DNA of 64,000 nt from an uncultured Acidimicrobiaceae bacterium (GCA_963831155.1 CAWHOY010000007.1:68800-132799), one strand, 5' to 3'; positions 1,270 to 24,666 are shown, numbered from the stretch's first letter. Made by a program: numbers and translations. Notes: a model not told the origin generated them from the letters alone.

Positions 1270-1283
1270 GTAGTATACTACAT
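1270..1283. promoter_or_regulatory. operator-like palindromic box S1 (minus-strand reading ATGTAGTATACTAC)
   Basis: The inner 12-mer GTAGTATACTAC is a perfect palindrome. It lies in the divergent intergenic region between the DUF2848 gene and the hydratase/lyase gene. It is identical to the box at 16139-16152. Confidence 0.55.
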
Positions 1284-1353
1284 GCTACATCTGTTTCGAG
1301 AAATGGATGCTCCCTCATCACCGGACCGATAGACCCCAGACATAAGGCGCGAC

Positions 1354-1375
1354 GGGAGGGCCCCTTGGCCCTCCC
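1354..1375 (+). other. perfect 9-bp GC hairpin in the 5' leader of the hydratase/lyase operon
   Basis: GGGAGGGCC-CCTT-GGCCCTCCC, ending 31 nt upstream of ATG 1407. There is no U-tract after it. Confidence 0.4.
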
Positions 1376-1406
1376 TCCGAGATCCAAAGCGAGGTCGACC
1401 GAGTAA

Positions 1407-2225
1407 ATGTCCAGCTACAAGACCGTGAAGATCGAGCGGGAAAACGGCGTCTCATTCGTCGTGTTGAATCGGCCGGAGAAGAAGAACGCCATGAATCCGA
1501 CGATGCACTACGAGATGCTGGAGGTGTGGGACGAGCTCGAATTCGACGCTGAAACCCGGGTTGTCGTCCTCACCGGCGAAGGCGACAGCTGGTGCGCCGG
1601 CCAGGATCTGAAAGAGTCCTTCCTCGAAACCGCCAACAATCCGCTGGAGCTACGGCGCTCCTCCTGGGCGGCGTCGGAGTGGCGGTGGCGCCGCCTCTAT
1701 TACTTCCCGAAGCCGACGATCGCGATGGTGAACGGCTACTGCTTTGGGGGCGGCTTCACCCAGCTGATCGCCTGCGACTTCGCCATCTCCGCCGAGGAAG
1801 CAACGTTCGGGCTCAGCGAGGTGAACTGGGGATCGTTCCCGGGCGGACTCGTCAGCCGCGTCCTTGCCGAGGTGCTGGGCACGCGCGACGCCCTCTACTA
1901 CATCATGACCGGCGAAACCTTCGACGGCCGGACCGCGGAGAGGATGCGCCTCGTCAACGAGACGGTTCCGCTTTCGGACCTCCGCAAGACCACATTGACG
2001 CTCGCCGACAAACTCCTCAGCCTCAATCCGCACACGCTGCGCGCCTGCAAAGAGGTGTACAAGCACGTGAAGGACATGGACTACGAAGATGCCGAGGACT
2101 ACATGTGGGCGAAGCTCGACATGCTCACGGTCCTCGATCCGGGCGGTCGCCAGCGCGGGATCAGACAATTCGTCGAGGACAAGAGCTACAAGCCTGGATT
2201 CGAGTCGTACGAGCACGATGACTGA
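1407..2225 (+). CDS. ech: 4-hydroxycinnamoyl/feruloyl-CoA hydratase-lyase-like crotonase
   Basis: 272 aa. NRPEKKNAM, KPTIAMVNGYCFGGGF, EATFGLSEVNWGSFPGG and YYIMTGETF align with my recollection of Pseudomonas HCHL along the whole length. Confidence 0.75.
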   Translation: MSSYKTVKIERENGVSFVVLNRPEKKNAMNPTMHYEMLEVWDELEFDAETRVVVLTGEGDSWCAGQDLKESFLETANNPLELRRSSWAASEWRWRRLYYFPKPTIAMVNGYCFGGGFTQLIACDFAISAEEATFGLSEVNWGSFPGGLVSRVLAEVLGTRDALYYIMTGETFDGRTAERMRLVNETVPLSDLRKTTLTLADKLLSLNPHTLRACKEVYKHVKDMDYEDAEDYMWAKLDMLTVLDPGGRQRGIRQFVEDKSYKPGFESYEHDD

Positions 2226-3429
2226 CGAGCAGCCGACGCCGCTGCTCGAGGGTTTCACCGCGCTCGACCTGTCGGGGAACGAGGGACAGTTCGCCGGACG
2301 TCTGCTCGCCGACCTCGGGATGCGCGTAATCAAGGTCGAGCCACCGAGCGGGGATGTCGTCCGCAGCATCGGGCCGTTCAAGGACGATCTCGTCGACCGC
2401 GAGGCGAGCCTTCGCTTCGCATTCTTGAACGGCGGTAAAGAGAGCATCACCCTCAACTTGGAGAACGCCGACGGCCGAGCGATGCTCCTCGATCTCGTCA
2501 CCCACGTCGACGTATTGATCGAGAGCTTCCCCCCCGGGTTCCTCGACCATCTCGGCGTCGGTTTTCGGCGCCTTCACGAGCGCAACCGTCAGCTCGTCAT
2601 AGTCTCCATCACTCCGTTCGGACAGAACGGCCCGCACGCGGACTATCTGGCGACCGACATCGTCGGTGTGGCGATGGGCGGGATCATGTTCATCTCCGGA
2701 GATCCGAGCCTCCCGCCAGTACGCCCGCCTGAGACGCAGTCGTTCTATTACGCCTCGATCTACGCGGCCTACGCGGTGTTGCTCGCGCTCTTCAAGCGTG
2801 GCGAGGACGGCGACGGGCAATACATCGATGTCTCGATCCAAGAAAGCGTCGCCTCGCAAGAACACATGATCCGCGAGGCGGCATTCGACGGCGTACAAAT
2901 CACGCGCAATGGCAGCCAACACAAGCACACGTCGCCGGCGAACATCTTTCCGTGCACTGACGGTTACGTCTATCTCTTCATCCTGGGCGCGCGTGATTGG
3001 GAGCGCCTGCTCGAGTTGTGGACCGATCATCCGATTGAGCTCGACGCTCCGGAGCTGAGGGCGCCCGGGCGTCGCCGCGCCAAAGCGGCGGCGATCAATC
3101 CGCTCGTCGAACAGTTCACCTCGCGTTATTCCAAGCGTGAACTGATGGGTTATCTGCAAGAAAACGGGATCCCTTGCCTGCCGGTCAATTCGCCGCGCGA
3201 CTTCCTCGGAGAAGAACAAGTCCGCGTCCGGGAGTTCCTTGGCGACGTGGAAAGCGCCTCGATCGGCCGATACCAGGCGCCACGGTTCCCCGCACTCTTC
3301 GACGGGCAGCGTCCGCCGGTCGCCGGCCCCCCACCACAACTCGGAGCGGACAGCTCGGCGATCTACCACGAATGGCTAGGGCTCGACGCCGACGAGCTCG
3401 AGCTGCTCGCGGCGAGAGGCGTGGTCTAG
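2218..3429 (+). CDS. CoA-transferase family III (CaiB/BaiF type), copy 1
   Basis: LDLSGNEGQFAGRLLADLGMRVIKVEPPSGD is a typical family III N-terminus. The ATG at 2218 overlaps the upstream stop. The longer track ORF (2089) is rejected. Confidence 0.85.
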   Translation: MTDEQPTPLLEGFTALDLSGNEGQFAGRLLADLGMRVIKVEPPSGDVVRSIGPFKDDLVDREASLRFAFLNGGKESITLNLENADGRAMLLDLVTHVDVLIESFPPGFLDHLGVGFRRLHERNRQLVIVSITPFGQNGPHADYLATDIVGVAMGGIMFISGDPSLPPVRPPETQSFYYASIYAAYAVLLALFKRGEDGDGQYIDVSIQESVASQEHMIREAAFDGVQITRNGSQHKHTSPANIFPCTDGYVYLFILGARDWERLLELWTDHPIELDAPELRAPGRRRAKAAAINPLVEQFTSRYSKRELMGYLQENGIPCLPVNSPRDFLGEEQVRVREFLGDVESASIGRYQAPRFPALFDGQRPPVAGPPPQLGADSSAIYHEWLGLDADELELLAARGVV

Positions 3430-3431
3430 AG

Positions 3432-4631
3432 ATGGAGAGTTTCCTTTCCGGTATCCGCGTCGTCAGCCTTTCGACAGGCATCGCCGGTCCGAACGCCGCA
3501 CGCGGCCTCGCCCTATACGGAGCCGAGGTGTTCAAAGTCGAGTCGCGCGCCGGCGGTCTCGACGCCTTCCGCTCCTACGGCGACAACCCCGAGGCATCCC
3601 CGCGCTTCGTCGAGGTCAACCTCAACACCCGATCGCTGACGCTCAACTTGAAGCGCCCGGAAGGGATCGCCCTCTTCAAGGAGCTCGTCGCGAAGTCCGA
3701 CGTCGTGATGGACAACTTCCGACCGCAGGTGCTCCCCCGCCTCGGACTCGGACCGGACGACCTCCTGGCGGTCAATCCGCAGGTGATCGTGGTGCGCATG
3801 CCCGGACTCGGTTCGCAAGGACCGCTCAGCGCATACGGCACCTGGGGTCCGACACTTACCGCGTACTCGGGGCTCACCTACCTCTGGAACCATCCGGGCC
3901 AGGAACGCCCGATCGGCTCGCAGGGTGTCTACCCCGACTACCTGACGGGAGCGGTCGTGCCGGCGATCGTCGTCGCCGCCCTGTTACGCAGACGCCGTAC
4001 CGGCACGGGGACGGCGATCGACGTCGCCCAGATGGACCTCGCCGCCTACACACTCGGGACGGTCTTCCTCGACGCCACCGTCAACGGTCGCGACCCGCAG
4101 CCGGTCGGCAACACCTCGCCGCACATGGAGCCACACAACAGCTTCCCGTGCCTCGGAGACGACCGTTGGTGCGTGATCGCCGTGGAAAACGACGCGCAAT
4201 GGGCGGCGCTCTGCGCGGTGATCGACGAAGAGGCGCTCGCGTCGGACGAGCGATTCGCGACGCTGCGGACGAGAAAGGCGAATCGCGACGAGCTCTTCGA
4301 GATCATCGCGAAGTGGACGCGACGCCACGAGGCGACTTCCGTGATGGAGCAGCTGCAGCATGCCGGCGTCCCGGCAGGTGTCGTGCAGGGAGGCAGTGAT
4401 CTCGCGGTCGACGCGCAGCTCGAAGCGCGCGGCTACATCGAGATCGTCGAGCACCCGATCCTCGGCAAGATGCCGATGGCGGGAATGCCGATGCACTTCA
4501 GCGCTGGCCGGCACGAAGCGCTGAAGAGTCCTCCCCCGCTCGGGTCGGACAACGAATACGTGATCACCGAGATCCTCGGTTACAGCGTTGACGACTTGAA
4601 GCGGTGGGAAACAGAGGAGGTCGTTTACTAA
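3432..4631 (+). CDS. CoA-transferase family III (CaiB/BaiF type), copy 2
   Basis: The N-terminus MESFLSGIRVVSLSTGIAGPNAARGLALYGAEVFKVE fits family III. The ATG lies 2 nt after the upstream TAG. It is a tandem paralog of the previous gene. Confidence 0.85.
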   Translation: MESFLSGIRVVSLSTGIAGPNAARGLALYGAEVFKVESRAGGLDAFRSYGDNPEASPRFVEVNLNTRSLTLNLKRPEGIALFKELVAKSDVVMDNFRPQVLPRLGLGPDDLLAVNPQVIVVRMPGLGSQGPLSAYGTWGPTLTAYSGLTYLWNHPGQERPIGSQGVYPDYLTGAVVPAIVVAALLRRRRTGTGTAIDVAQMDLAAYTLGTVFLDATVNGRDPQPVGNTSPHMEPHNSFPCLGDDRWCVIAVENDAQWAALCAVIDEEALASDERFATLRTRKANRDELFEIIAKWTRRHEATSVMEQLQHAGVPAGVVQGGSDLAVDAQLEARGYIEIVEHPILGKMPMAGMPMHFSAGRHEALKSPPPLGSDNEYVITEILGYSVDDLKRWETEEVVY

Positions 4632-4702
4632 GTGGTTGTCAAGGTGAGTGGAAGTACTGGCAAATCAAAGGCTCAATGCCCAATAAGCGCAGGAAGGAAG
4701 TA

Positions 4703-5740
4703 ATGGAGTTCGGACTTGTCCTGGGGCCGTTCCTCCCGCCACGAGAGGAGATGACCTCGCAGGACGCGCTCACCCTGCAAATGCGGTTCGCCGAACGCGC
4801 CGCCAAATCGGGCTTCGACTGCGTGAGCATGGGCCACCACTATCTTTCGGGTCCGCTCGCGCAGTTCTTCCAGCCGATCCCGCTCGCTGGGGCGATCCTC
4901 GCCCGGTATTCGTCCCTTTCGGTGGCAACCACGATCTTCCTCCTCCCGTATCACAACCCCGTGGAGATAGCTGAAGCTGTCGCCACCCTCGACGCCCTCG
5001 CTCCAGGACGTTTTGTGCTCGGCGTCGCCCAGGGATACCGCCGCGACGAAGCCGAAGCAGTGGGAATTAACCACTCGAGCCGCCAGCAACGGCTGACCGA
5101 GTCCATCACCGCAATGCGACTCCTCTGGCAAGGTGGTCCAGCGAATTTCGAAGGCAAGTACTTCCGGTTTCACGACGCCGACATCGGCATCACGACCAAA
5201 AGTCCGACTGGCCCGCCCATAATTGTTGGGGCCGATACCATCGGCTCGATCCTCCGCATTCCTGTGATCGGCGGCGACCACTGGCTTCCGAGTCCACGCA
5301 ATGGGACGACATTTATCAAGAAGGTGCTTCCCGCTTACATCGAATCTGTCCGTAAAGCGGGCCGCGATTTCCTTGGCATCCCAATCATGCGAAGCGTTTA
5401 CGTATCGACGGACGAACATTCAGCCCAAGAGGCGCTTGTCAAAGCGGTGCGACGCATGTCCGCCATCCAGGCGAAATGGGGCCAGCCGGGTGAGCGATCA
5501 AGACCCGATTTCGACCAGATCCGGAGAGAGAAGCAGATCATCTTGGGGAGCACCGAACAGATCGCTGAGTCGATCGTCGAGCTATACCGCGAGATCGCTG
5601 TCAGGTGCATCTTCCTCCATTGCTATACCCCGGGGATGGACCCTGAAGCATCACTCGACATGGTCGCTCAGCTTGGTGAGGAGACGCTGCCACTTGTGCG
5701 CAAGGAAATCGGATCGGATTCCTTTTTGTTGAACCACTAG
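4703..5740 (+). CDS. LLM-class (luciferase-like) flavin/F420-dependent oxidoreductase
   Basis: MEFGLVL...FDCVSMGHHYL...PVEIAEAVATLDALAPGRFVLGVAQGY matches the family. An AGGAAGGAAG RBS precedes ATG 4703. Confidence 0.8.
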   Translation: MEFGLVLGPFLPPREEMTSQDALTLQMRFAERAAKSGFDCVSMGHHYLSGPLAQFFQPIPLAGAILARYSSLSVATTIFLLPYHNPVEIAEAVATLDALAPGRFVLGVAQGYRRDEAEAVGINHSSRQQRLTESITAMRLLWQGGPANFEGKYFRFHDADIGITTKSPTGPPIIVGADTIGSILRIPVIGGDHWLPSPRNGTTFIKKVLPAYIESVRKAGRDFLGIPIMRSVYVSTDEHSAQEALVKAVRRMSAIQAKWGQPGERSRPDFDQIRREKQIILGSTEQIAESIVELYREIAVRCIFLHCYTPGMDPEASLDMVAQLGEETLPLVRKEIGSDSFLLNH

Positions 5741-5805: not shown

Positions 5806-6570
5806 TCAGCCTGGCATGTTCCCTCCGCCGTCGACGACAAGCACTTGTCCCGTAATCCAGGAGCTCATCTCGCTAGCAAGGAAGAGCATCGGCCCGACAA
5901 TGTCGGCTTCCGAGCCGAAACGCTTGATGCACCTCCACTCCAAGAAACTGCGAACGACCTCCTCTGAGATCTCAGCTTCGTCGCCGGTTATCACCGGACC
6001 CGGCGCGATCGCGTTGACCCGTATGCGGTAAGGGGCAAGCTCGCGGGCGAGCGAGCGGGTGATGGGAGGTATCGCTCCTTTCGACACCGTGTAATGGATC
6101 CGTCCAGGCGGGTTCTGCCAGATCGCGGGTGATGTCTGATTGATGATCACGCCACCTCCGCGGGACCGCATCAAAGGAGTGACGGCGCGCGTGGCAAGCA
6201 GAATCGACGTCAAGTTCATCGCCAGCACCCTCTCCCACAGCTCAAGGACCATGTCCTCGAGCGGATCTGGCGGCGGAAGTGGCAATCCTTGAAACATCGC
6301 GGCGTTATTGACAAGGACGTCTGCGCCGCCGAAGGCATCGCCGACAGCATTCGCCATCTCAAGGGTGCTTGCTTCGGAGGTGACGTCCGTCGGAACGAGG
6401 AGCGGTTCGTGACCAGCCTTCCGCAACACGGAAACTGTCGTGTCGCCCGATTGCTCTCCGTCGGCGATTACGACGCGCGCCCCTGCCTCCAGCAGACCGC
6501 GGCCGTAGGCCGTGGCGAATCCTCCCGGGCCGGTAACGATCGCTACCTTGCCGTCGAGTCCAAATGCCAT
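5806..6570 (-). CDS. SDR-family oxidoreductase
   Basis: 254 aa. KVAIVTGPGG glycine-rich motif, NNAA, and YTVSKGA catalytic Y-x3-K. Confidence 0.85.
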   Translation of the reverse strand: MAFGLDGKVAIVTGPGGFATAYGRGLLEAGARVVIADGEQSGDTTVSVLRKAGHEPLLVPTDVTSEASTLEMANAVGDAFGGADVLVNNAAMFQGLPLPPPDPLEDMVLELWERVLAMNLTSILLATRAVTPLMRSRGGGVIINQTSPAIWQNPPGRIHYTVSKGAIPPITRSLARELAPYRIRVNAIAPGPVITGDEAEISEEVVRSFLEWRCIKRFGSEADIVGPMLFLASEMSSWITGQVLVVDGGGNMPG

Positions 6571-6737
6571 ATGCCTCCTTCGAGCGGTTCGCGATCGAGA
6601 TGACCAGAGTCACATTCATTCTGCTACGAATTACGCGGAAACGATCTAGAGACTTGGCTCGTGTATTCCACGACATTCTCTAAAAGAAATACCCATTGTC
6701 GTCGGTTAGCGTCGATAGAGATGTAGCGAGGACTTGA

Positions 6738-8321
6738 ATGCATGCTCAACCCTCTGCAAAGGACGTCGTCAAGGTGGCTGCAGGGCTTGGCATCCAGCTC
6801 GGCCTCGAAGCGGCGGCCCTCTATCGCGATGCGATCATCGAACAGCTCGCCGCGATCGATGAACTTCTAAGTTTTCGCTTGAGCGAGCAAGCACCGCCGT
6901 TGTCGTACCCCATTCGAGATACCGGTTATCGGCCCTCTGCTGAAGAAGATCCCTATCGAGTGTGGCTTTGGAAGTGCTCGATAGGCGGAGATACCGAAGG
7001 GCTGCTTGCTGGAAAACGAGTGAGTTTTAAAGACCACATCGCAGTTGCGGGCATTCCAGAGACATTCGGTGCGGAACCACTGGAGGGGTTTATCCCCGAC
7101 TTTGACGCGACGGTCGTCAACAGAGTGCTCGCGGCCGGTGGACGAGTGATCGGGAAGAACTCGATGGACGGCCTAACCGGAGGAAGAGCCTCCGGGGCGG
7201 TTGGCGGCGACTACCCGCCCCCGATAAATCCCCACGATGCGACTCGCATAACTGGCGGATCGTCGTCCGGATCAGCAGCCGCGGTCGCGGTCGGGGAGGT
7301 CGACATTGCCTTCGGCGGTGATCAGGGAGGTTCCGCCCGCGTTCCAGCGGCGCTATGCGGAGTAATCGGAGTCAAGCCAACGTTCGGTTTGGTGTCGCAC
7401 ATGGGGGTGGCGTTCGGCGCTGAACCAAGCCTTGACCACGTCGGCCCCATCGCTCGATACGTCGAAGACGCTGCGGCCGCACTCGAAGCAGTCGCCGGCC
7501 ACGATGACTTCGATCCGCGCCAAACAAAGGAGATTCCAGATTGTCTTGACGTAATGACCTCACTCAAACGAGGTGTCTCGGGGTTGAGGATCGGCATCCT
7601 CGATGAAGGATTCGCTACGCCGATCGACGAGGAGGTTCGCGAGTCCGTGCTGTCGGCATTAGACGTGCTCCACGGCCTCGGTGCGGAAATCAAACGGGTT
7701 TCAGTGGAGGCGCACGAGTTTTGCGCACCAGCGTTCCTCGCCTTGTCGATTTTCGGATCTTCTGCGATACAGAAGACGGGCATCATGGGGTTTGGATCGG
7801 CGACTTTCTATCCCTCGTCACTCATCGTCGCCTTCAACAAGATGTGGGCGTCGAGTCTCGAGCGGATGTCGCCACGAACAATCGTTGGGTATCTGACGGC
7901 AGAATTCAGCCGCCGAAGCGATTTCGGTGCGGCTTACGCGAAGGCGCAGAATCTCCGATCGACGTTCGCTCACGCATACGACCGGGCTCTCAGCGAAGTC
8001 GACGTCATTGCCTTGCCGACCTGCCCGATCGTTGCGCCGAAAGTGACGAAAGAGCCAACAAGTGATCACGAAGCTCTTCAGGCAGATCTAAGTTCTCGGC
8101 AGCAGGTAGCTGTGATGTCGAGAAATACTCTGCCGTTCAATTACACTGGACACCCGGCGGTCGCTTTGCCTTGCGGAAAGGTGAGTGGCGGACTCCCAAC
8201 GAGCATCCAGCTAGTGGGCCGACAGCTCGAGGATGCGCTCTTGCTCCAAATCGCTTACGCCTTTGAGAAATCCGTCGATTGGGAACACCTCATTACTCCG
8301 CCTCTTCAGGTGGGCGGATGA
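6738..8321 (+). CDS. amidase (amidase-signature family)
   Basis: 527 aa with the GGSSSGSAAAVA signature and a KDHIAVAGIP motif. Confidence 0.85.
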   Translation: MHAQPSAKDVVKVAAGLGIQLGLEAAALYRDAIIEQLAAIDELLSFRLSEQAPPLSYPIRDTGYRPSAEEDPYRVWLWKCSIGGDTEGLLAGKRVSFKDHIAVAGIPETFGAEPLEGFIPDFDATVVNRVLAAGGRVIGKNSMDGLTGGRASGAVGGDYPPPINPHDATRITGGSSSGSAAAVAVGEVDIAFGGDQGGSARVPAALCGVIGVKPTFGLVSHMGVAFGAEPSLDHVGPIARYVEDAAAALEAVAGHDDFDPRQTKEIPDCLDVMTSLKRGVSGLRIGILDEGFATPIDEEVRESVLSALDVLHGLGAEIKRVSVEAHEFCAPAFLALSIFGSSAIQKTGIMGFGSATFYPSSLIVAFNKMWASSLERMSPRTIVGYLTAEFSRRSDFGAAYAKAQNLRSTFAHAYDRALSEVDVIALPTCPIVAPKVTKEPTSDHEALQADLSSRQQVAVMSRNTLPFNYTGHPAVALPCGKVSGGLPTSIQLVGRQLEDALLLQIAYAFEKSVDWEHLITPPLQVGG

Positions 8322-8536
8322 CGTCATAACAAAAGGAGACCAGCGGCGCACGTAACTGCGCGACGCGACCGACGCCGTACAAGCTTCGTGAAGGGGACTT
8401 TCAACTGGGAGCGGAGGCACCCTTGAGGATACGTCGCTGCGCGCAGATCTCGAACTGTGCAATCACCGCATCTTTCGCGAAAACCAGTTTCGCGTTTACG
8501 GGTGCTGGCAAAGTGATCAATGACAGTCTGAGACGG

Positions 8537-9190
8537 TCAGCGGGATATGAGCGCTCTCTCGCGTTGGCCACCTATTCGGCAAATGACCTCATCAACGGTC
8601 ACGACTTCTGCGAAGCAAAACGCCATGATGGCGCAAGCTGTGCGCTGTAACTCCTCAGCTGAGCAAGCTGCGATACCTGGCCCACCAGGCAGATCAAAGT
8701 TCGCCGTTCCGTCGGCGAGGAAGATCACCTCGAAGTTAAGCGCTGCAGCCTCCCGCGCCGTGGTATCAACACAAATGTTCGTGTTTATCCCGCCTATCAA
8801 AAGCGTCGTTATGCCATTGCTGCGTAGGATGAGATCCAAATCAGTCGCGCTGAAGCTACCAAACATCGGTTTGTCCAGGACGATGTCACCCTTCGCGACC
8901 TCGACAGACGCGTCGATGGCGACGGTATCGGCGGTTGCGTCCATGACCCCTTCATTGACCGCCGGAACCGCGCGGGCGAGGAGTCCCGCGTTGCTTCTGT
9001 CCGGTCGGACAACATGCCGTGTCCAGATGACGGGTATGCCGACCTGACGGCACTGTCGTGCCAGTCGATTAAGGCGGGAGACGACGTCTGCTGCGTTCGG
9101 GGCTGCCACGGGAGAGTCAGACACGAATCGCGTCTGAAGATCGACTGCGAGCAAGGCCGTTCGCAGACAGTCGATCTCGAACTCAAGCAT
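8537..9190 (-). CDS. isochorismatase-family cysteine hydrolase, copy 1
   Basis: 217 aa. ALLAVDLQ, a later K (DKPMFGSF) and LLIGGINTNICVDTTAREA supply the D-K-C catalytic pattern. Confidence 0.8.
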   Translation of the reverse strand: MLEFEIDCLRTALLAVDLQTRFVSDSPVAAPNAADVVSRLNRLARQCRQVGIPVIWTRHVVRPDRSNAGLLARAVPAVNEGVMDATADTVAIDASVEVAKGDIVLDKPMFGSFSATDLDLILRSNGITTLLIGGINTNICVDTTAREAAALNFEVIFLADGTANFDLPGGPGIAACSAEELQRTACAIMAFCFAEVVTVDEVICRIGGQRERALISR

Positions 9191-9420
9191 GCTTTACTCC
9201 TCGCTCCAGAGCGGATCGGATATTGCCGGGCAATCCATCGATCGAGTGATCACACGAGATGCTTCACCGTGCGTTGAAAGAGCCTTGCACCGCGAGCGCG
9301 GCGATGAACGACTTGACTGTTCGACGCGGGACTTGGCGGGATCGGCTCACAGAAGCGAACGCACGGGTTGCTAGTCAACGGAACACCACAACATCGAAAT
9401 TAGGACGTCCTGTCGGCGGC

Positions 9421-9445
9421 TAGTATGTCAGATGTCAAATACTAC
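9421..9445. promoter_or_regulatory. split version (S5) of the palindromic box
   Basis: The minus strand reads TGTAGTAT-TTGACATCTGAC-ATACTAG. Both half-sites of the box are present but 12 nt apart. The site ends 25 nt upstream of the cupin-1 ATG. Confidence 0.35.
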
Positions 9446-9470
9446 AAATGGTCAATAAGAGAGGATACGC

Positions 9471-16985: not shown

Positions 16986-17108
16986 ATTCTCTCCTGAGAG
17001 AGCCGCAAAAGCTGACGGCTAATGGATCGATTAGATCGATACATGCGCCTCCCTCTGGCGAATCGCGGCACGACGGAGCAGAGCCGTGTGGTAGCGAGCG
17101 GAACTCGC

Positions 17109-17122
17109 ATGTAACATACTAG
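17109..17122. promoter_or_regulatory. operator-like box S3 (ATGTAACATACTAG)
   Basis: It lies in the divergent intergenic region between two isochorismatase-like genes, ending 18 nt upstream of ATG 17141. Confidence 0.5.
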
Positions 17123-17140
17123 CTCGAGGATGCCCTTGAG

Positions 17141-17890
17141 ATGGCGGACCTGGAATGTCAGGGTTTGGAGCGACCAGTGGCGAAGCACATATGGGATGAC
17201 TTCATCACTACCCAGGATCGCCAGGTCTACGGCAGCGGCGTCTTCGGCGGGAGCGTCGGAATCGGCAAACGCCCGGCAGTCCTTGTCATCGATGTTCTCA
17301 ACAAGAGCATCGGCGACGAGCCGCTGCCGATCCTCGAGGCGATAAAGCGCTTCGGCAGGTCCTGTTGCGGCGAGTACGGCTGGGCGACTATCCCGAAGAT
17401 CCACGCGATCCTCGTGGCCGCGCACGACGCCGCGTTGCCCGTCTTCTACACGACCCCCCAAGATCCCGAGGAGCGGCCGCCCGAAACCTTCCGCCGCTTC
17501 GATGAGAAGATGCCGAACTGGTACGACTACTCGGGCAAACGGGCGGGCTACGCCTTCGCCGACGAGATCGCCCCGATCGCCGGCGATCACATCTTCCACA
17601 AACCGACGGCGAGCTCGTTCTACCTCACCGATTTCGAGGACCAGCTTCACAAAATGGACGTCGACACGCTCATCGTCACCGGCTGCGCGACAAGCGGATG
17701 CGTCCGTGCCTCGGTCGTCGACGCACACGCACGTGGCTTCAAGGTGAACGTCATCGAGGACGCTGTTTTCGACCGCGGCCAAGTGACTCACGCCATGAAC
17801 CTCTTCGACATGCAGGCGAAGTACGCCGACGTGATCGATGCCGAGGAGGCTGTCCGCCGAATCGAGGCGGCCGCAACCAACTCGCAATGA
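17141..17890 (+). CDS. isochorismatase-family cysteine hydrolase, copy 3
   Basis: 249 aa. PAVLVIDV, HKPTASSF and LIVTGCATSGCVRASVVDA match the family. Confidence 0.8.
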   Translation: MADLECQGLERPVAKHIWDDFITTQDRQVYGSGVFGGSVGIGKRPAVLVIDVLNKSIGDEPLPILEAIKRFGRSCCGEYGWATIPKIHAILVAAHDAALPVFYTTPQDPEERPPETFRRFDEKMPNWYDYSGKRAGYAFADEIAPIAGDHIFHKPTASSFYLTDFEDQLHKMDVDTLIVTGCATSGCVRASVVDAHARGFKVNVIEDAVFDRGQVTHAMNLFDMQAKYADVIDAEEAVRRIEAAATNSQ

Positions 17891-18690
17891 CGCCTTCGAG
17901 CCGAAGCGAGCCACAACCGGTGGCGCCGACCACGTGTCGGCGCTACGTCGGCCGCACCGCGATCATCACCGGCGCGGGCGCGGGCATCGGCAAGGCGACC
18001 GCCGATCGGATCCTCACTGAAGGCGGGAGCGTCTTCATCACCGACCGCAACAAGGAAGCTCTCGCCGCTGCCGTCGAGGATCTCTCAGAACGCGGCGGCG
18101 CCGTCCACTCTTCGGTGAAAGACGTTTCCTCGGAGGAAGATTGGGAACGCTGCATTGCCGAAGCTCGCGACGCGTTCTCCAAGCTCGACGTGCTCGTCAA
18201 CAACGCCGGCTTCAGTCACGTCGGGATTATCACCGAATACCCGGCCGAAGATTGGAAGACCCTGCACGAAACACAGCTCTTCGGCACCTTCCTCGGCATC
18301 AAGCACTCGATTCCCCTTTTGCGCGAAGGCGGCGGCGGCGCCATCGTCAACGTCGCCTCCTCGATGGGATTGATGGGCTTTCCTCACATCCCCGCCTATT
18401 CAGCCGCCAAGGGTGGAGTGATCGCCCTCACGCGCCAGGTGGCGCTCGACTTCGCGCCGGACAAGATCCGGGTGAACTGCGTCTGCCCCGGACCGACGCG
18501 AACTGAACGGCTCCGCGGGATCGTTGAGTCCGGCGACGTCGATGAGAACTACCTGATCGGGAACGTGCCACTCGGTCGGTGGGCGCACCCGAGCGAAGTC
18601 GCGGCCGTCATCGCTTTCCTCGGAAGCGATGACGCTTCCTTCGTCACCGGTGCAGCTCTCCCCGTCGACGGAGGACAGACGTCGCACTGA
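17887..18690 (+). CDS. SDR-family oxidoreductase
   Basis: TAIITGAGAGIGKATA, NNAG and YSAAKGG. The ATG at 17887 overlaps the upstream TGA (ATGA). Confidence 0.85.
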   Translation: MTPSSRSEPQPVAPTTCRRYVGRTAIITGAGAGIGKATADRILTEGGSVFITDRNKEALAAAVEDLSERGGAVHSSVKDVSSEEDWERCIAEARDAFSKLDVLVNNAGFSHVGIITEYPAEDWKTLHETQLFGTFLGIKHSIPLLREGGGGAIVNVASSMGLMGFPHIPAYSAAKGGVIALTRQVALDFAPDKIRVNCVCPGPTRTERLRGIVESGDVDENYLIGNVPLGRWAHPSEVAAVIAFLGSDDASFVTGAALPVDGGQTSH

Positions 18691-19541
18691 TCCGCTTCGG
18701 CCACGTCGCAAATCCGTTCTCGACACCAGTCAGTCGCGCCATCGACGACGGGGCCTTCGCCGCTTCCGGCATCGAAGTCGAGGTCACGCGCCTTCGAAAC
18801 GGTTCGGAGGTCGCGGAACTGCTCGACGGCGGCCGGCTCGACGCCGGTCTCGGAGGACACCTGCAGACTCTCGCGGCGGCGCTCTCCGGATCTGACCAGG
18901 CGTTCTTCTCGGCGGTCGGGTTCGAACAGGCACCAGACCACCTCCCGGTGACATTGACAGTCAGTGCCGACGGCCCGGCGAGAGGAATCGTCGACGGTGC
19001 AACTGTCGCGATGAGTGCTCGGGCGGCGATCAGCGATTTGCAGGTGCGCATCTTCTCGGCCGCAGAGGGACTGGAGTATGAATCGCTTCGCATCGTGACG
19101 ATGCCCTTCACCGAGATGCAGGCGGCGTTCGAAAAGGGCGAGATCGATGCTGCGTCGGTGCCGGATCCGTTTGCCGCGCAGATCGAGAGCTCGGGAGTCG
19201 GAGTGATCATCGACCGTGGCACGCTCAGCAGAAAGATGCCAGCGATTGGCCGCGTGATGATCACCGGGCTCGTCTCGACAAAGCGATGGATCGAGGAGCA
19301 TCACGACCTCGCGACCCGGTTCGCTGAGGTCATCGGTCAGGTCATCGCCGCCGCTCCCCCGCCAAGAGATGGCAGCGCTGTGCGAAGTTCGCGTATGCAC
19401 GAGCCGACGTTCGACACCCGACTGCGCGTCGCGGATCTGCAGCTCGCGTTCGACCTCGCCGCCGGCTATGGCGTCGTCGCAGACAGCGTTGCCGCCGAGG
19501 TGCTGATCGCACCACCTGGGTTCGAAACAAGTCGCCACTGA
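18687..19541 (+). CDS. NMT1/THI5 (SsuA/TauA)-like binding-protein fold, no signal peptide; non-canonical start inferred
   Basis: The frame is open from 18633. Codons 18690-18947 read IRFGHVANPFSTPVSRAIDDGAFAASGIEVEV..., a typical N-terminus for this fold. The first ATG/GTG/TTG is only at 18948. CTG 18687 overlaps the SDR stop (CTGA). Confidence 0.55.
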   Translation: MIRFGHVANPFSTPVSRAIDDGAFAASGIEVEVTRLRNGSEVAELLDGGRLDAGLGGHLQTLAAALSGSDQAFFSAVGFEQAPDHLPVTLTVSADGPARGIVDGATVAMSARAAISDLQVRIFSAAEGLEYESLRIVTMPFTEMQAAFEKGEIDAASVPDPFAAQIESSGVGVIIDRGTLSRKMPAIGRVMITGLVSTKRWIEEHHDLATRFAEVIGQVIAAAPPPRDGSAVRSSRMHEPTFDTRLRVADLQLAFDLAAGYGVVADSVAAEVLIAPPGFETSRH

Positions 19542-19554
19542 TCGCGAGGTTCTG

Positions 19555-19881
19555 ATGTCTCAGTACGTCATCATCGCCAGTCATCGACCCGACCTCTGCC
19601 CCATCTCAAACGCGACGGTGCGCGCCCGGGTCACTGCCGGCATGTCACAGCTCAAGTCCGAGCGGGCACCATCTACTGGCGTCACCTTCACGGTTGACCC
19701 GGTCCACTTGGACCCGAGCCACCGGACGATTGCATTCGTCGAAGCGCCGAACATCGAAGCCGTCACCAAGCTCGTCTCGACCATCGGACTGTCGCAGTGG
19801 AATGAGGTCGAGGTTTGGCCGGCGACGCCGACCTTCGAACTGTTCTCGAATCTCGACGATGTTCCGCCGCTGTTCTCGTGA
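19555..19881 (+). CDS. hypothetical small protein (possibly DUF3303-like)
   Basis: 108-aa ORF placed tightly within the operon. No motif was recognised with confidence. Confidence 0.4.
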   Translation: MSQYVIIASHRPDLCPISNATVRARVTAGMSQLKSERAPSTGVTFTVDPVHLDPSHRTIAFVEAPNIEAVTKLVSTIGLSQWNEVEVWPATPTFELFSNLDDVPPLFS

Positions 19882-19974
19882 TGGTGTTTCCAAGCGCCGT
19901 CCCAACGGGCGCGCGTCGATCGCGCGCCGGTACCCGCGCGACGGGTTGACCCGACTGACCGACAAGTCGCGCTG

Positions 19975-21609
19975 ATGTCGGCAAGCAGGCCGAGCGCCAG
20001 AGTAGACTACGACGTCGTCGTCATCGGCGCCGGCTTCGCCGGGCTGTACATGGCGTACAAATCAATGCAGCTCGGCTTCACGACCATCGGCGTCGAGGCC
20101 GGCGAGGGGGTCGGCGGCACGTGGTTTTGGAACCGCTACCCAGGCGCGCGCGTCGACGTCCAGTCGGTCGAGTACTCATTCAGCTTCTCGAAACAGATCC
20201 AGCAGGAGTGGAACTGGACCGAGCTGATGGCCGCCCAGCCGGAGGTCGAGGCCTATCTCAACCATGTCGCCGATCGCCTCGACATCCGCCGGCATGTGTT
20301 GTTCTCGAGTCGTGTGACGGCGATGACATTCGACGAACGCTCGGCGACATGGGAAGTCGTCACCGATCGGAACGGGCGCTTCCGCTGCCGCTTCGTCATC
20401 GCCGCAACCGGCTGCCTCTCGGTTGCGCTCGAGCCTCAGATCCCGGGTCTGGAGACCTTCGGCGGTGACTCCCTGTACACGAGCCGCTTCCCGCCTGAGG
20501 GCTACGACTTCACTGGCAAACGGGTCGCCGTCATCGGCACCGGGTCCTCCGGGGTGCAGGTGATACCCGAGATCGGCCTGCAGGCGGAGCATCTCGCCGT
20601 CTTTCAAAGATCCGCCGCCTACACCAGGCCGGCGAACAACCGGCCCTTCGAGCCGGGCGAACTCGAAAGGATCAAGGACAGCTACGACGACCTCCGGGCC
20701 AAAGAACGCGCCTCGAACTTCGGGCTGATGCAACTCGGGTCGATGGTCGTCGAAGGAATCGAGCCGCCGATACAACGCATCCTCGACACCCCAATGCCGG
20801 ATCGAATCGCCAAGCTCGACGTTCTCGGCTGGGACGCCCTTCACGCATGGGCCGACGTGACGACGGACCTAGAAGCGAACAAGGCGGCGACCGAGCTCTA
20901 CGCGATCCAGATCTCGCGGCTCGTGCGCGATCCCGCGACGGCGCGGTCATTGATCCCCTGCTATCCGATGGGATGCAAGCGGCAAATCTTCGACATCGGG
21001 TATTTCGACACCTTCAATCGCCCCAACGTTCGCCTCGTCGACGTCGCGGCGAACAACATCGTGGGCATCACGCCGAAGGGGATCGACACCGAAACCGAGT
21101 CGTTTGGGTTCGACGTGATCGTCTACGCGACGGGATTCGACGCGATGACGGGTGCGCTCAACCGAATCGCGATTACCGGCAAGAGAGGCGAGACGCTTTC
21201 AGCGGTTTGGAGGCAATCAGGTCCTGTCTCTTACCTCGGTCTGCAAGTCGCTGGCTTTCCCAACCTCTTCACCATCACGGGGCCCGGCAGCCCTGCGGTC
21301 GTGACGAACATGGTCGTGTCGATCGAGCAGCACGTCGAATGGATCGCTTCGTGCTTGGACCATCTGAGCCGGAACGACTATTCGACGATCGAAGCCGACC
21401 CCACGGCCCAGGACCGATGGGGCGACCATGTCCGTTCGCTCTCGGAGGGCCTGATCAGGACGGCACCGACGTGCAACTCCTGGTACCTCGGCTCGAACGT
21501 CCCGGGTAAAAAGCGCGTCTACATGCCCTATGCGGGGGGCCACGCGCGGTATCGGAAGGAGTGCGATGAAATCGCGGAGTCGAAGTACGAAGGATTCATC
21601 CTGAGCTAG
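19975..21609 (+). CDS. Baeyer-Villiger (type I flavin) monooxygenase with atypical fingerprint
   Basis: 544 aa. VVVIGAGFAGL, GGTWFWNRYPGARVD and VAVIGTGSSGVQ fit the family. The fingerprint position reads FGGDSLYTSRFP rather than FxGxxxHxxxWP. Confidence 0.8.
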   Translation: MSASRPSARVDYDVVVIGAGFAGLYMAYKSMQLGFTTIGVEAGEGVGGTWFWNRYPGARVDVQSVEYSFSFSKQIQQEWNWTELMAAQPEVEAYLNHVADRLDIRRHVLFSSRVTAMTFDERSATWEVVTDRNGRFRCRFVIAATGCLSVALEPQIPGLETFGGDSLYTSRFPPEGYDFTGKRVAVIGTGSSGVQVIPEIGLQAEHLAVFQRSAAYTRPANNRPFEPGELERIKDSYDDLRAKERASNFGLMQLGSMVVEGIEPPIQRILDTPMPDRIAKLDVLGWDALHAWADVTTDLEANKAATELYAIQISRLVRDPATARSLIPCYPMGCKRQIFDIGYFDTFNRPNVRLVDVAANNIVGITPKGIDTETESFGFDVIVYATGFDAMTGALNRIAITGKRGETLSAVWRQSGPVSYLGLQVAGFPNLFTITGPGSPAVVTNMVVSIEQHVEWIASCLDHLSRNDYSTIEADPTAQDRWGDHVRSLSEGLIRTAPTCNSWYLGSNVPGKKRVYMPYAGGHARYRKECDEIAESKYEGFILS

Positions 21610-21652: not shown

Positions 21653-23062
21653 CTACGCGCCGACGAGGGATCTCGACTCGGCGACGAGATCGATGGCGCT
21701 CGAGGGTGGACGGCGCAGGTACTCGCCGAAACCCTCTTTGCCGACGATCTCGCCGTCTTTCATCACCGTTTGGCCGCGGACGAGCGTCTGCACCGACCAT
21801 CCCTTCAGCCGTTCTCCTTCCCAAGGCGAGAAATCAGCCCGGGACTGCAGGTAGCCGGCGTCAACGACCATCTCCTTGTCGAGATCGACGATGGCGAGGT
21901 CGGCGTCACTTCCGACCTCGATCGCCCCTTTGCGCGGGTAGAGGTTGAAGATTCGCGCCGTGTTGTACGAGGAGATCTCGGCGATCCGCTGCAGACTGAC
22001 CCCGCGGCGGTGGTAGCCCTCGGTGAGCAGCACCGAGAGCATCGTCCCGACCCCTGGGAAGGCGGATCCCGCCTTCCACACTCCTCCTTCTTTGTCCGCC
22101 CGGAAGCGAGCCGAATGGTCGCACCCGACCGTGTCGACCTGACCGGCCTCGACCGCCGCCCACATTGCGTCGACGTCCTTCGCCTTGCGGACCGGAGGGT
22201 TGACCTTCGCAAGCAGCCCGCATGGCGAGTCGATCGTGAGCGAGAGGTAGTGCGGGGTCGTCTCGATAAAGACCGGCGTCTCGTTGCTGCGAATGCTCGC
22301 GAATTCTCGCGCCGACTCCTCGCAGCTCATATGGACGAAGTACACAGGACAACGCGTTGTCCTCGACATGAACGCCGCGGTCATCATCGCCGTCGCTTCT
22401 GCCACTGGCGGACGCGCCGCATAGTGCGCCTTTAAGCCGTCGAGTCCTTGTTTTTTGACTTCCTCCTCGGCACGCCAGATCATCTCGATGTCCTCGGTAT
22501 GGACGTTGACGATCGCGCCGGGGATACCCGCGATCGTCTCGAGCAGCTCGTAGAACAGCCCGTCGTCGGTGGTTCCAACGCCGCGCGCTGTCCCCTCGTT
22601 GCCCTTGTAACTCATGAAGAGCTTGAACGACGAGATGCCGAGATCATTGATGTAATGCGGGATCTTGGCGATGTGCTCCGAGGAGAAGATCCCGAGGTGA
22701 ATCCCCATGTCGACGTAGGCGAGGCGGTCGATGTGGTCGAGGAACTCGTCGTAGTCGGCCTTGTAGGAGCCCGGCTTCAAGATGTAGTTGAGAATCGAGG
22801 TTGCCCCCCCGATGGCGGCCGATCGGGTCTCGCTGCTGACGTCGGAGAGCGGCTGGCCGACGAAGCCGATGTGCATGTGCGGATCGATGAGTCCGGGGAA
22901 GATAAAACGACCTTTCGCATCGATGTCCACGTCGGCACTGACGGACTCGTCCGGTTCTAACAGCGCGGCGATCTTGCCCTCACGGATGGCGATGTTGATC
23001 TTGCGCAATCCGTGGGCCGGGATGACCGCCGTGCCGCTCCTGATCACTGTGTCGAAACTCAT
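21653..23062 (-). CDS. dihydropyrimidinase/hydantoinase-type cyclic amidohydrolase
   Basis: 469 aa. GLIDPHMHIGF, a later K for carbamylation, VHTEDIE and GSDADLAIVD give the amidohydrolase-superfamily pattern. Confidence 0.85.
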   Translation of the reverse strand: MSFDTVIRSGTAVIPAHGLRKINIAIREGKIAALLEPDESVSADVDIDAKGRFIFPGLIDPHMHIGFVGQPLSDVSSETRSAAIGGATSILNYILKPGSYKADYDEFLDHIDRLAYVDMGIHLGIFSSEHIAKIPHYINDLGISSFKLFMSYKGNEGTARGVGTTDDGLFYELLETIAGIPGAIVNVHTEDIEMIWRAEEEVKKQGLDGLKAHYAARPPVAEATAMMTAAFMSRTTRCPVYFVHMSCEESAREFASIRSNETPVFIETTPHYLSLTIDSPCGLLAKVNPPVRKAKDVDAMWAAVEAGQVDTVGCDHSARFRADKEGGVWKAGSAFPGVGTMLSVLLTEGYHRRGVSLQRIAEISSYNTARIFNLYPRKGAIEVGSDADLAIVDLDKEMVVDAGYLQSRADFSPWEGERLKGWSVQTLVRGQTVMKDGEIVGKEGFGEYLRRPPSSAIDLVAESRSLVGA

Positions 23063-23090
23063 CGCGCTCGTTCGCCTTTCTCTGTCGATC

Positions 23091-23123
23091 GTCAGAACAA
23101 CAGCCGAGCCCGCGACGCTCGGC
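23091..23123 (-). terminator. possible intrinsic terminator/attenuator between the NMT1-like gene and the hydantoinase gene
   Basis: 7-bp GC stem GCCGAGC/GCTCGGC (23103-23123). On the transcribed minus strand it is followed by UGUUGUUCU. Confidence 0.3.
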
Positions 23124-23143
23124 GGTACCGCCCGTTCTGGTCC

Positions 23144-24193
23144 TCAATAGCCGTACTTGGCGGCGACTTTCTTCGCCCGGTCGCGATCGCCCTTCAGCTC
23201 CGCACGCCCCGAAAGCTCCGCGTAGGCGTCCTTTGCCATGTCGAGTTGGGAGATCTTGCTCGGCTCGACGTAATCGTCGATCGCCCCGATAGCGACCGCC
23301 TCTTTCAGGTACCCCTCGAGACCGGTCGGCAGCCCGTCGATCGGGAAGGGCATCATCTCGGCCTGCACCGCCGATCCGAACTGCGCCATGCGGACGCGCT
23401 CGTCGGGATCGGGGCTCCGCCTCCGCAGGCGCGCCTCGATCGCCGCGGTGAGTTCGATGTTGTCGGGCTGACGGCGGATGAACCAGTACGCCCGGATCAT
23501 CCCCTTGATGAACGCTGTGAGGTCATCGGGCCGCTCATCGATCGCCTTCTCGGTAGCTGCGATCACACGGTCGGGGCGACCGTCTGGGTAGTGCGCGCCG
23601 ACATCGAAGATCTGCACGTACCCCTCGTCGAGCAACCCGGGGAGATCGAGACTGTCGACGAACGACGCGTCGGCGCGCCCCTCTCGCAGCGCGAACGGTC
23701 CCCGCCGTGTGTCGATGCCCGTCACCCACTCGATGTCGTTTTGCGGATCGATTCCTTCTTGAATAAGCCAGTACGTGAGCATCGTCACGAGAATGTCGTC
23801 GGGATCGATAATGCCGACTCGCTTGCCGACGAGATCCCTTAGCGTCGACACGCCGGAACGGCCGACGACGTAGAAGGCCATTTGGTTGCGCCACCCGGCG
23901 ATGACCCGTAGCCCCTTTCCTTGTTGCTGGAGGAAGGCGACGGTCGAGGGCTTGACGTCCATCGTCACGTCGATCCCGCGTTCTTTCATCGTCTGCCAAA
24001 GCGTCTGCTTCTCGAACATGAACGGCGCGTGGCTGTCGGGGACGATCTCGTAGGTCTCAAGACCGTCTTCGTCGCGGAGTCCCTCGTCGTAGAAGTAGTT
24101 GAGCTCGTCGGCGATCGTCGGAGGGACGAGGTGCAACACGTGATAACAGGATGGGCCGATGCGAAGCGGGCGGCGGCTGCGACCGCGGGTCAC
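23144..24193 (-). CDS. NMT1/THI5-like binding-protein fold, no signal peptide, copy 2
   Basis: GTG 24193 overlaps the TGA of cupin paralog 3 (GTGA). The upstream part of the 421-aa track ORF is rejected because it overlaps the cupin gene. Confidence 0.55.
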   Translation of the reverse strand: MTRGRSRRPLRIGPSCYHVLHLVPPTIADELNYFYDEGLRDEDGLETYEIVPDSHAPFMFEKQTLWQTMKERGIDVTMDVKPSTVAFLQQQGKGLRVIAGWRNQMAFYVVGRSGVSTLRDLVGKRVGIIDPDDILVTMLTYWLIQEGIDPQNDIEWVTGIDTRRGPFALREGRADASFVDSLDLPGLLDEGYVQIFDVGAHYPDGRPDRVIAATEKAIDERPDDLTAFIKGMIRAYWFIRRQPDNIELTAAIEARLRRRSPDPDERVRMAQFGSAVQAEMMPFPIDGLPTGLEGYLKEAVAIGAIDDYVEPSKISQLDMAKDAYAELSGRAELKGDRDRAKKVAAKYGY

Positions 24194-24597
24194 GCGCTCT
24201 GGACCTTCTTGATGTTGGCGCTGAACGCTTCGATCGTGTCCGCCGCTTCCTTCGCCGGATTGAACTCGATGTTCTCGAAGTCCTCGATCGCGTACAGCTT
24301 GTGGCCCGGGGGCGCGTAGTAGAGGTCGCCGCCGTTGATCGTGACCTCCCGACCGTCCGCCATCCGCAACAGCGCCTTTCCCTTCACGAGGTAACCCCAG
24401 TGCGGGCACTGGCAGAGGTCCTCAGGGAGCCCCTCCCACGCCGCGTCGCCGCCGGGGGGGAATCCGCCCGGGACGCGTTCGAAGGCCATCGCGTACCCCT
24501 CCCACTGTGCCCATTGCGCCTGATAGGCACCCATGCTGACGACGGGAAGATCGTCCTTGGCGATGGTCAGACCGTCCGGCGAATAGAGCTCGGCCAT
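24190..24597 (-). CDS. small cupin, CQCPH family, paralog 3
   Basis: 135 aa from ATG 24597: MAELYSPDGLTIAKDDLPVV..., CQCPHWGY, GDLYYAPPGH, FENIEFNP. The longer track ORF (to 25236) is antisense to the aldehyde dehydrogenase gene and is rejected. Confidence 0.75.
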   Translation of the reverse strand: MAELYSPDGLTIAKDDLPVVSMGAYQAQWAQWEGYAMAFERVPGGFPPGGDAAWEGLPEDLCQCPHWGYLVKGKALLRMADGREVTINGGDLYYAPPGHKLYAIEDFENIEFNPAKEAADTIEAFSANIKKVQSA

Positions 24598-24652
24598 TTT
24601 CGACGACTCCTCTACTGTTCTGGGCGCCAGGGCCACCGGTGGCGCGATTCGT

Positions 24653-24666
24653 ATGTAGCATACTAG
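24653..24666. promoter_or_regulatory. operator-like box S4 (ATGTAGCATACTAG)
   Basis: It lies in the divergent intergenic region between cupin paralog 3 (ATG 24597) and the aldehyde dehydrogenase (ATG 24739). Confidence 0.5.

Follow-up and report, generated by a model that had tools for sequence, protein, structure and literature searches.

The DNA considered here is a 64,000-nucleotide stretch of an uncultured Acidimicrobiaceae bacterium (GCA_963831155.1, CAWHOY010000007.1:68800-132799; hereafter the window, numbered from its first letter), in which a short palindromic box recurs in five promoter regions of a catabolic gene island. Judging from sequence, these boxes are very probably operators of one FadR-subfamily (FCD-type) GntR regulator encoded 0.8 kb before the window. 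The initial annotation of the window had attributed the boxes to a single repressor-type regulon, possibly GntR-like, and had seen no helix-turn-helix (HTH) regulator between 1 and 27 kb. The first proposal is supported by the upstream GntR+FCD gene and by the conserved pairing of this regulator with the box in about 13 lineages. The second observation holds as far as Pfam shows; the regulator was out of view because of the position at which the window was cut.

Box sites in the window and their specificity

An exact and mismatch search of the 64 kb window located all five sites at the coordinates given earlier. ATGTAGTATACTAC occurs exactly at 1270-1283 (minus strand) and at 16139-16152 (plus strand), variant ATGTAACATACTAG at 17109-17122 and variant ATGTAGCATACTAG at 24653-24666. 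The split site at 9421-9446 has the form CTAGTAT-N12-ATACTAC, which matches its earlier description; one arm, ATGTCAAATACTAC, is at 9432-9445. All five sites are intergenic and 5' of genes, and the flanking genes are those previously named (Pfam). Four are situated in head-to-head regions, and the fifth (16139) lies 66 nucleotides (nt) 5' of an ATP-binding cassette (ABC) binding-protein gene.

The sites are listed below together with three boxes left of the window. Scores were obtained with a matrix derived from 25 sites of distant loci only, this genome and its close relatives being excluded (the distant-genome matrix).

Operator D, 1268-1290, minus strand: between the DUF2848 gene (minus strand) and the enoyl-CoA hydratase operon (plus strand)
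Operator E, 9418-9447, split, no strand assigned: GGCTAGTATGTCAGATGTCAAATACTACAA, between an isochorismatase gene (minus strand) and two cupin genes (plus strand)
Operator F, 16135-16154, plus strand: CCAAAT-GTAGTAT-ACTAC, score 19.8
Operator G, 17102-17124, plus strand: CTCGCAT-GTAACAT-ACTAG, score 21.2, with an overlapping direct half-site at 14.5
Operator H, 24649-24668, plus strand: TCGTAT-GTAGCAT-ACTAG, score 19.6
Regulator's own box, window -1657 to -1642, outside the window: ATGTAGCATGGTAC, 21 nt 5' of the regulator ATG
Two further boxes, left of the regulator box: window -3812 to -3797 and window -6543 to -6528

The minus strand of operator D (1270-1287) reads TAGCAT-GTAGTAT-ACTAC and comprises a perfect palindrome, GTAGTATACTAC, at 1270-1281 plus an extra direct half-site (score 19.9, overlapping match 13.3). 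Operator E possesses two good half-sites, CTAGTA and TACTAC, 14 bp apart (two degenerate heptads); the matrix detects it as two weaker boxes that overlap (scores 14.2 and 13.6), and the distance from its end to the cupin ATG at 9471 is 23 nt. Operator F precedes the binding-protein ATG of a Liv-type ABC importer operon (minus strand) by 66 nt. About 17 nt separate the end of operator G from the start codon of isochorismatase 3 (ATG at 17141), and the divergent isochorismatase 2 is 117 nt away. Operator H separates a cupin/NMT1-like/hydantoinase operon (minus strand) from an operon of aldehyde dehydrogenase (ALDH) and TauE (plus strand). Of the two leftmost boxes, one stands between a 223-aa open reading frame (ORF) and an AhpD-like-PNPOx-UbiX operon, the other between a short-chain dehydrogenase/reductase (SDR) gene and a Cupin_7 gene.

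An exact 14-mer repeat had been considered rare by chance. This argument has to be qualified, since the window contains 267 repeated exact 14-mers outside its pair of insertion sequences (IS). The box is distinguished by the highest A/T content among these repeated 14-mers, by the existence of degenerate copies and by their placement. With up to 3 mismatches allowed, 7 matches are found in the window against 0.37 expected, and 7 matches were reached in none of 100 shuffles. The distant-genome matrix gives 8 matches scoring 13.3-21.2 in the window, all within the five regions, against a mean of 0.32 matches scoring at least 12 in 200 shuffles.

The abundance of repeated 14-mers could suggest that the boxes match by chance, or that they are a short dispersed repeat or RNA element without a regulatory role. 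The probability of this explanation is negligible in view of the shuffles; moreover, all sites are in 5' regions, are conserved across phyla and occur in either orientation relative to genes. A Rfam scan of the whole window returned only a tRNA (48263-48336) and no match at the boxes, and the interpretation of the boxes as an RNA element was dropped on that ground.

Specificity was assessed from 8.6 kb before the window to the window end, i.e., over ~73 kb of this genome. Matrix scores over this stretch are bimodal: eight 5' intergenic regions reach 14.2-21.2, the remaining intergenic DNA does not exceed 8.8, coding DNA 6.8 and the 30-64 kb part of the window 7.2. Right of 24668, no box scoring above 8.8 occurs up to the window end. 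All head-to-head promoter regions from -7 kb to +25 kb are boxed except the one at 6572-6738. The operator sequence was not found in the literature; the string GTAGTATACTAC turns up only in an unrelated virus paper.

The regulator and the operator it is predicted to recognize

The initial annotation had recommended inspecting the contig upstream of position 1, and a GntR+FCD gene is present there, ending 810 bp before the window, with its own box 21 nt 5' of the ATG. The locus holding the window (L001) belongs to a 416 kb ENA metagenome contig; L001 position 8595 is window position 1.

Regulator, L001 6973-7785 (window -1621 to -809), plus strand: 270 aa, GntR + FCD (FadR subfamily; Pfam)
UbiD-family decarboxylase, L001 5535-6911 (window -3059 to -1683): divergent from the regulator

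The N-terminal GntR winged helix-turn-helix (PF00392; E 8e-16, 57.9 bits, cut-off 27) and the C-terminal all-helical FCD domain (PF07729; E 3.6e-22, 79.5 bits, cut-off 24.3) are both matched by six of six orthologues, and the best PDB matches of the regulator are solved FCD-type GntR structures. The protein scores below every NCBIfam equivalog cut-off examined (PhnR, NanR, CsiR, LldR, ExuR, UxuR, GlcC and FadR; the best is PhnR, 88.8 versus 271.5 bits) and thus is not an orthologue of any named regulator. Placement in the VanR group of FCD proteins, which have six helices in the C-terminal domain where the FadR group has seven, is hinted at by the shortness of its orthologues (222-232 aa) and by its resemblance to TM0439 and Atu1419. 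Residues D142, H146, H190 and H212 are invariant in the orthologue alignment and follow the pattern Asp/Asn-x3-His ... His ... His of FCD domains that contain metal. Their spacing (4/44/22) equals that of the Ni/Zn ligands N144/H148/H192/H214 of Ps5454, a comparison of spacing only and not of superposed structures (PMC7674646).

At 270 aa the regulator is longer than its distant orthologues by a C-terminal tail of ~45 aa (L001 7605-7785, window -989 to -809). The DNA encoding this tail overlaps the call of a convergent amidase gene by ~180 nt, and the family-profile match of that amidase is limited to its first ~240 residues.

Homologues of the regulator were sought in one genome per species and in Joint Genome Institute (JGI) metagenomes. 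This gave 26 loci (E ≤1e-46, 45-88% identity) representing ~13 distinct lineages of Acidimicrobiia, Nitriliruptorales and Limnocylindria (Chloroflexota), i.e., two phyla; the genomes closest to the present one are metagenome-assembled genomes of uncultured Acidimicrobiaceae. A second matrix (the window matrix) was built solely from the four contiguous sites of the initial annotation and applied with a threshold of 8.5 within 150 nt of the regulator start. A site scoring 8.5-19.2 was found in 17 of 18 regulator homologues of 47-88% identity, and no 150-nt stretch reaches 8.5 in the box-free 30-64 kb of the window. At the boxed loci the site is directly 5' of the regulator start codon or overlaps it.

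The regulator loci have a core gene set in common: UbiD, UbiX, thioredoxin, Cupin_7, AhpD-like, PNPOx-like, DUF2848, amidase and a Liv-type ABC importer. At distant loci, boxes precede the same gene families, namely Cupin_7, AhpD-like, the ABC binding protein and the ALDH/NMT1-like pair. In L016 and L018, with regulators of 67-68% identity, the divergent ALDH/NMT1-like region is boxed as a counterpart of the window site at 24653; the orthologous ABC binding-protein gene is boxed in L015 and L025, as a counterpart of the site at 16139. In the spacer between DUF2848 and the hydratase of L003 and L005, a 21-nt block, CGGTAGTATACTACATGCTAC, is the longest invariant stretch, the remainder having diverged.

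The box could instead be bound by a different transcription factor encoded elsewhere, the neighboring GntR gene being merely another target. This is conceivable, as GntR binding is predicted and ~73 kb of the genome were scanned; such a factor is nevertheless quite improbable. When other loci were searched with proteins encoded on this contig, the GntR+FCD gene was the sole regulator found beside the boxes in the ~13 lineages of two phyla. The box sits at the promoter of this very gene (17 of 18 homologues), the operator core fits the FadR-subfamily consensus (PMC4494728), and the orthologues share an invariant recognition-helix region, ISRTPVREAL...IVPQRGFR.

Four regulators encoded in the window were considered as binders and rejected, none of them having a box of its own. 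For the LuxR-type response regulator and kinase (28234-30297), tblastn queries gave no match at boxed loci. The YtrA-like GntR protein (31903-32295; 6.2 at 31883), the TetR-like protein (38280-38897) and the WYL/PafBC-like pair (58991-60894) were not used as queries in other genomes. The YtrA-like gene encodes 130 aa and is followed by an ABC-2 exporter (32292-34240), forming a separate GntR system that does not use the box.

Alignment of 43 distinct sites, oriented by the flanking AT, gave an 18-nt consensus, T-n-G-y-A-T-G-T-A-G-y-A-T-r-C-T-A-s (TnGyAT-GTAGyAT-rCTAs). Its core is the inverted repeat TAGyA/TrCTA, and 17-18 positions are conserved, with a two-fold symmetry seen in G6/C11 and T4/A13. 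The two halves differ in a systematic way: the left half favors C (TAGCA) in 30 of 43 sites and the right half favors the T equivalent in 27. A third half-site, TnGyA, is located in direct orientation 7 nt 5' of the left half; its T is present in 39 of 43 sites, and the mirror position is unconserved. The third half-site explains the tCGyAT flank at 17109 and 24653 and the arrangement GTAGCAT-GTAGTAT-ACTAC at 1270. The perfect inner palindrome claimed in the initial annotation is real (1270-1281), while the description of the whole site as a plain palindrome is not sustained, a third direct half-site being present.

Resemblance to GntR operators had also been suggested on the basis of a GT..AC pattern. 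It applies to the central GTATAC (GT-N2-AC) and not to the outer GT and AC. The operator consensus of the FadR subfamily is NyGTM-N0-1-KACNy, with GT and AC 2-3 nt apart, and extra half-sites 7-12 nt from the center are common among GntR-family sites (PMC4494728). The core of the present operator with y=T reads GT-AT-AC and conforms to this consensus. Arrays of three overlapping weaker boxes, offset by 7-8 nt (e.g., AACTAGTATCCTAGTATACTTGTATGCTACGG), are found in L003 (16286-16317), L005 (16287-16318) and L027 (4205-4235); those in L003 and L005 are 5' of a second ABC transporter gene. Such arrays suggest cooperative multi-dimer operators.

Promoter geometry, proposed mechanism and related systems

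In L007, L009 and L026 the ATG of the regulator gene coincides with box positions 13-15, and an in-frame stop just 5' fixes the start. In operator D a sigma-70-like match, TCGAAA-16-TATACT (1299-1272, minus strand), has its -10 hexamer inside the box. The promoter scan used an E. coli-type model and is uninformative as a whole, with 3 matches versus 4.8 expected. The actinobacterial -10 consensus is of the TAnnnT type, and the box bears hexamers of this type on both strands (top strand TAGyAT, bottom strand TAGTAT), so one bound protein could shut both divergent promoters.

Alternatively, no dedicated repressor need exist: the same hexamers could make the box a shared core-promoter element, with a strong TAnnnT -10 on both strands, or a site read by an alternative sigma factor. 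The initial annotation had named this as a possible refuter, and both TAGyAT and TAGTAT, as well as the TATACT of box D, agree with it. The explanation is highly improbable, since 17-18 conserved positions with two-fold symmetry exceed the needs of a -10 hexamer. Dozens of promoters would be expected in 64 kb, yet nothing outside the regulon scores above 8.8, and across phyla the box accompanies one and the same regulator gene. The start codon in L007 and L009 is inside the box, too near for the main hexamer to serve as a -10. The two roles are also compatible, an operator over the -10 region being the expected layout for a repressor.

Under the operator reading, the regulator would bind the boxes as a dimer or higher oligomer via its winged helix-turn-helix, recognizing the inverted repeat TAGyA/TrCTA and the extra direct half-site 7 nt 5'. 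Since a box overlaps the -10 region, the transcription start or the start codon, the bound protein would block RNA polymerase. The regulator would repress its own gene and ~13 other transcription units; the position of the boxes over core promoters argues for such autoregulated repression. Release from DNA would follow binding of an effector to the metal site of the FCD domain. In FCD domains the metal contacts a carboxylate ligand, and the conserved metal residues therefore predict a metal-assisted carboxylate pocket. The effector would probably be a carboxylate of the pathway, for example an acid, heteroaromatic or aromatic, on which the co-conserved UbiD/UbiX decarboxylase acts. The nearest solved structures of the UbiD protein are 6h6x and 6h6v (E 2e-50), the former being the 2,5-furandicarboxylate decarboxylase HmfF. 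This likeness hints at a heteroaromatic acid, and the UbiX prenyltransferase belongs to the same predicted regulon as UbiD.

The regulator could also bind the boxes as an activator or dual regulator, like CitO. Activators exist in the FCD family, CitO being one example; boxes D and H are 55-155 nt from the flanking start codons, a distance that would allow more than one placement relative to the promoters. Activation appears unlikely, however, as boxes overlap the start codon or lie at most 25 nt from it (at the regulator gene in several lineages, and at 17141 and 9471), which leaves no room for a downstream core promoter. Characterized relatives with similar operators, Atu1419, DgoR and NanR, are repressors (PMC7797058, PMC7674646, PMC8012715).

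Several observations weigh against operators of a single FCD-type repressor. Four features of the model (DNA binding, direction of control, oligomeric state and effector) are deduced, and the organism is uncultured. The activating members of the FCD family mentioned above are one such point; another is the effector of Atu1419, which shows that a pathway intermediate is not required (PMC7797058). A gammaproteobacterial homologue, 46% identical (L010), is without a box by the window matrix. The box-free head-to-head promoter at 6572-6738 is inside the island, between an SDR gene (minus strand) and the gene of a 527-aa amidase (plus strand), and its best score is 1.6. The asymmetric site does not always face the nearest gene: box F and the box at L001 2051 point away from it. 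The specificity data cover ~73 kb of this genome and short flanks in relatives.

The FadR subfamily as surveyed by Suvorova et al. (2015, PMC4494728) has the same architecture, an N-terminal GntR winged helix-turn-helix and an all-helical FCD domain, and the same A/T-rich palindrome with a GT..AC core, here TAGTA/TACTA, i.e., GT-N2-AC. This spacing is listed there for the GntR, HpxS, HypR, MdcY and PrpR groups. One site serving divergent operons, autoregulation and a weaker extra half-site 7-12 nt from the center are likewise known in the subfamily (PMC4494728). The present system differs in its asymmetric site (C in the left half), its large regulon of eight operator regions and the lack of a named orthologue.

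The nearest characterized analogue in behavior is Atu1419 of Agrobacterium fabrum (VanR group, PDB 6Z74, PMC7797058). This FCD-type protein is autorepressing and represses a catabolic island in which an enoyl-CoA hydratase is encoded. The Atu1419 operator, ATGTATACAT, has the ATGTA...TACAT outline and the GTATAC center in common with ATGTAGTATACTACAT. Its operators overlap -10 boxes, with several per locus, and its FCD domain has a Zn site; the protein is a DNA-looping tetramer with methylene-tetrahydrofolate as effector (PMC7797058). Its similarity to the present regulator is weak (PDB match E 2.8e-9, 40 bits), and its operator is a 10-mer, whereas the half-sites here are one base pair longer each.

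NanR of E. coli, with the operator (GGTATA)3, is a FadR-subfamily repressor in which several dimers bind direct GTAT-containing repeats cooperatively (PMC8012715). The FCD domain considered here matches NanR weakly in NCBIfam and the PDB, and the two regulators are not orthologous (64.5 bits versus a cut-off of 260). In contrast to NanR, inverted symmetry dominates here, and two direct units at a 7-nt period precede an inverted one; the 43-site alignment does not show a purely tandem symmetry of three direct repeats. DgoR, TM0439 and Ps5454 (PMC7674646) contain metal in the FCD domain; the ligand spacing of Ps5454 is that of D142/H146/H190/H212, and the sequences of all three are distant.

A more specific combination may be put forward only tentatively, and it is rather doubtful as a whole: the three-half-site operator (two direct, one inverted) would be recognized by a larger assembly (a tetramer or a dimer of dimers, for instance) with precedents in NanR and Atu1419, and would control an uncharacterized UbiD/UbiX-dependent (hetero)aromatic carboxylate pathway. 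The conserved core of such a pathway would be the GntR gene and the UbiD-centered set common to Acidimicrobiia, Nitriliruptorales and Limnocylindria. The amide/lactam-hydrolase, Baeyer-Villiger monooxygenase and CoA-transferase modules would have been recruited here, each being given a box.

Predicted regulon and neighboring elements

The regulon had been estimated at about 25 kb. A shared regulon is retained, and it is larger: the prediction comprises eight operator regions, three of them left of the window, with ~34 genes over ~33 kb; five regions and 24 genes are in the window. The units in the window are as follows (Pfam assignments where marked).

1-186, minus strand: 3' end of an amidase gene, leftward unit under operator D
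300-1112, minus strand: DUF2848 gene, leftward unit under operator D (Pfam)
1407 to 5740, plus strand: enoyl-CoA hydratase, two family III CoA-transferases and luciferase-like monooxygenase, rightward of D (Pfam)
8537 to 9190, minus strand: isochorismatase-family hydrolase 1, leftward of operator E (Pfam)
9471 to 10496, plus strand: two small cupin genes, rightward of operator E (Pfam)
11097 to 16072, minus strand: Liv-type ABC importer (binding protein, fused permease, two ATPases), under operator F (Pfam)
16257 to 16985, minus strand: isochorismatase-family hydrolase 2, leftward of operator G (Pfam)
17141 to 21609, plus strand: isochorismatase 3, SDR, NMT1-like protein, 108-aa ORF and Baeyer-Villiger-type flavin monooxygenase, rightward of G (Pfam)
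21653 to 24597, minus strand: cupin (24190-24597), NMT1/SsuA-like protein and hydantoinase-type amidohydrolase, leftward of H
24739 to 27104, plus strand: aldehyde dehydrogenase and TauE/SafE-family exporter, rightward of H, right-hand edge of the regulon (Pfam)

The right edge is placed at the ALDH-TauE unit because no box scoring above 8.8 occurs beyond 24668. DUF2848 was found in no paper. Megablast of window positions 1-25 kb against a plasmid collection gave only short matches of 72-77% identity to hydratase/lyase genes, with no annotated relatives.

Four paralogous small cupins are encoded at 9471-9884, 10086-10496, 24190-24597 (minus strand) and 27705-28064 (minus strand). Three of the four adjoin a box; the fourth is outside the regulon, beside a two-component system. 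The cupin at 24190-24597 is 54-69% identical to the other three copies. A 58-aa ORF at 24422-24597 was considered as a fragment and rejected, since tblastn gave one intact cupin gene at 24190-24597.

The G+C content is 56-59.5% at 6000-17000, inside the regulon, versus 60-66% on either side. Amidase B, isochorismatases 1 and 2, two cupins and the ABC importer are encoded in this stretch, which may have been acquired separately and later placed under the same operator. A TauE/SafE-family (sulfite-exporter-type) membrane protein is encoded at 26337-27104, 3' of the ALDH gene, and two NMT1/SsuA-like proteins of the regulon at 18700-19541 and 23144-24180; together these could hint at an organosulfur step.

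Two IS110-family transposase genes (39264-40310, minus strand; 46853-47899, plus strand) lie in a pair of 1333-nt inverted repeats, 85% complementary (39103-40435 and 46728-48060). The pair encloses ~6.3 kb with a NERD-domain gene (40681-41280) and several ORFs without a Pfam match, an arrangement like that of a composite transposon. An IS3-type transposase pair is located at 34384-35573 (HTH_Tnp_1 orfA, 34384-34710; rve orfB, 34941-35573). An integrated element may have its edge at the tRNA gene (48263-48336, minus strand; Rfam 69 bits), which lies just to the right of the stretch rich in IS. A TraG/TrwB-like type IV coupling protein (55132-56739, plus strand) and a TrwC-type relaxase (56740-58893, minus strand) look like part or a remnant of an integrative conjugative element. 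The tandem WYL/WCX-domain pair at 58991-60894 (minus strand) is PafBC-like, one member having a PafC-type HTH.

The system is a previously uncharacterized regulator-operator pair of a well-known kind, and the apparent anomaly of boxes without a regulator is resolved. When a regulator appears to be missing in genome scanning, the edges of the window should be compared before the absence is called surprising. The three-half-site operator and the conserved UbiD-centered cluster are the remaining points of modest interest, and the regulator with its boxes would constitute a portable repressor/operator set for Actinomycetota.

For this uncultured soil Acidimicrobiaceae bacterium, an apparent orphan motif has become a defined regulator-operator pair. 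The predicted regulon links genes of unknown role (DUF2848, AhpD-like, small cupins and NMT1-like) to UbiD/UbiX, amidases and an importer as one pathway. This grouping offers a concrete handle for identification of the substrate, via release of the regulator from the box.

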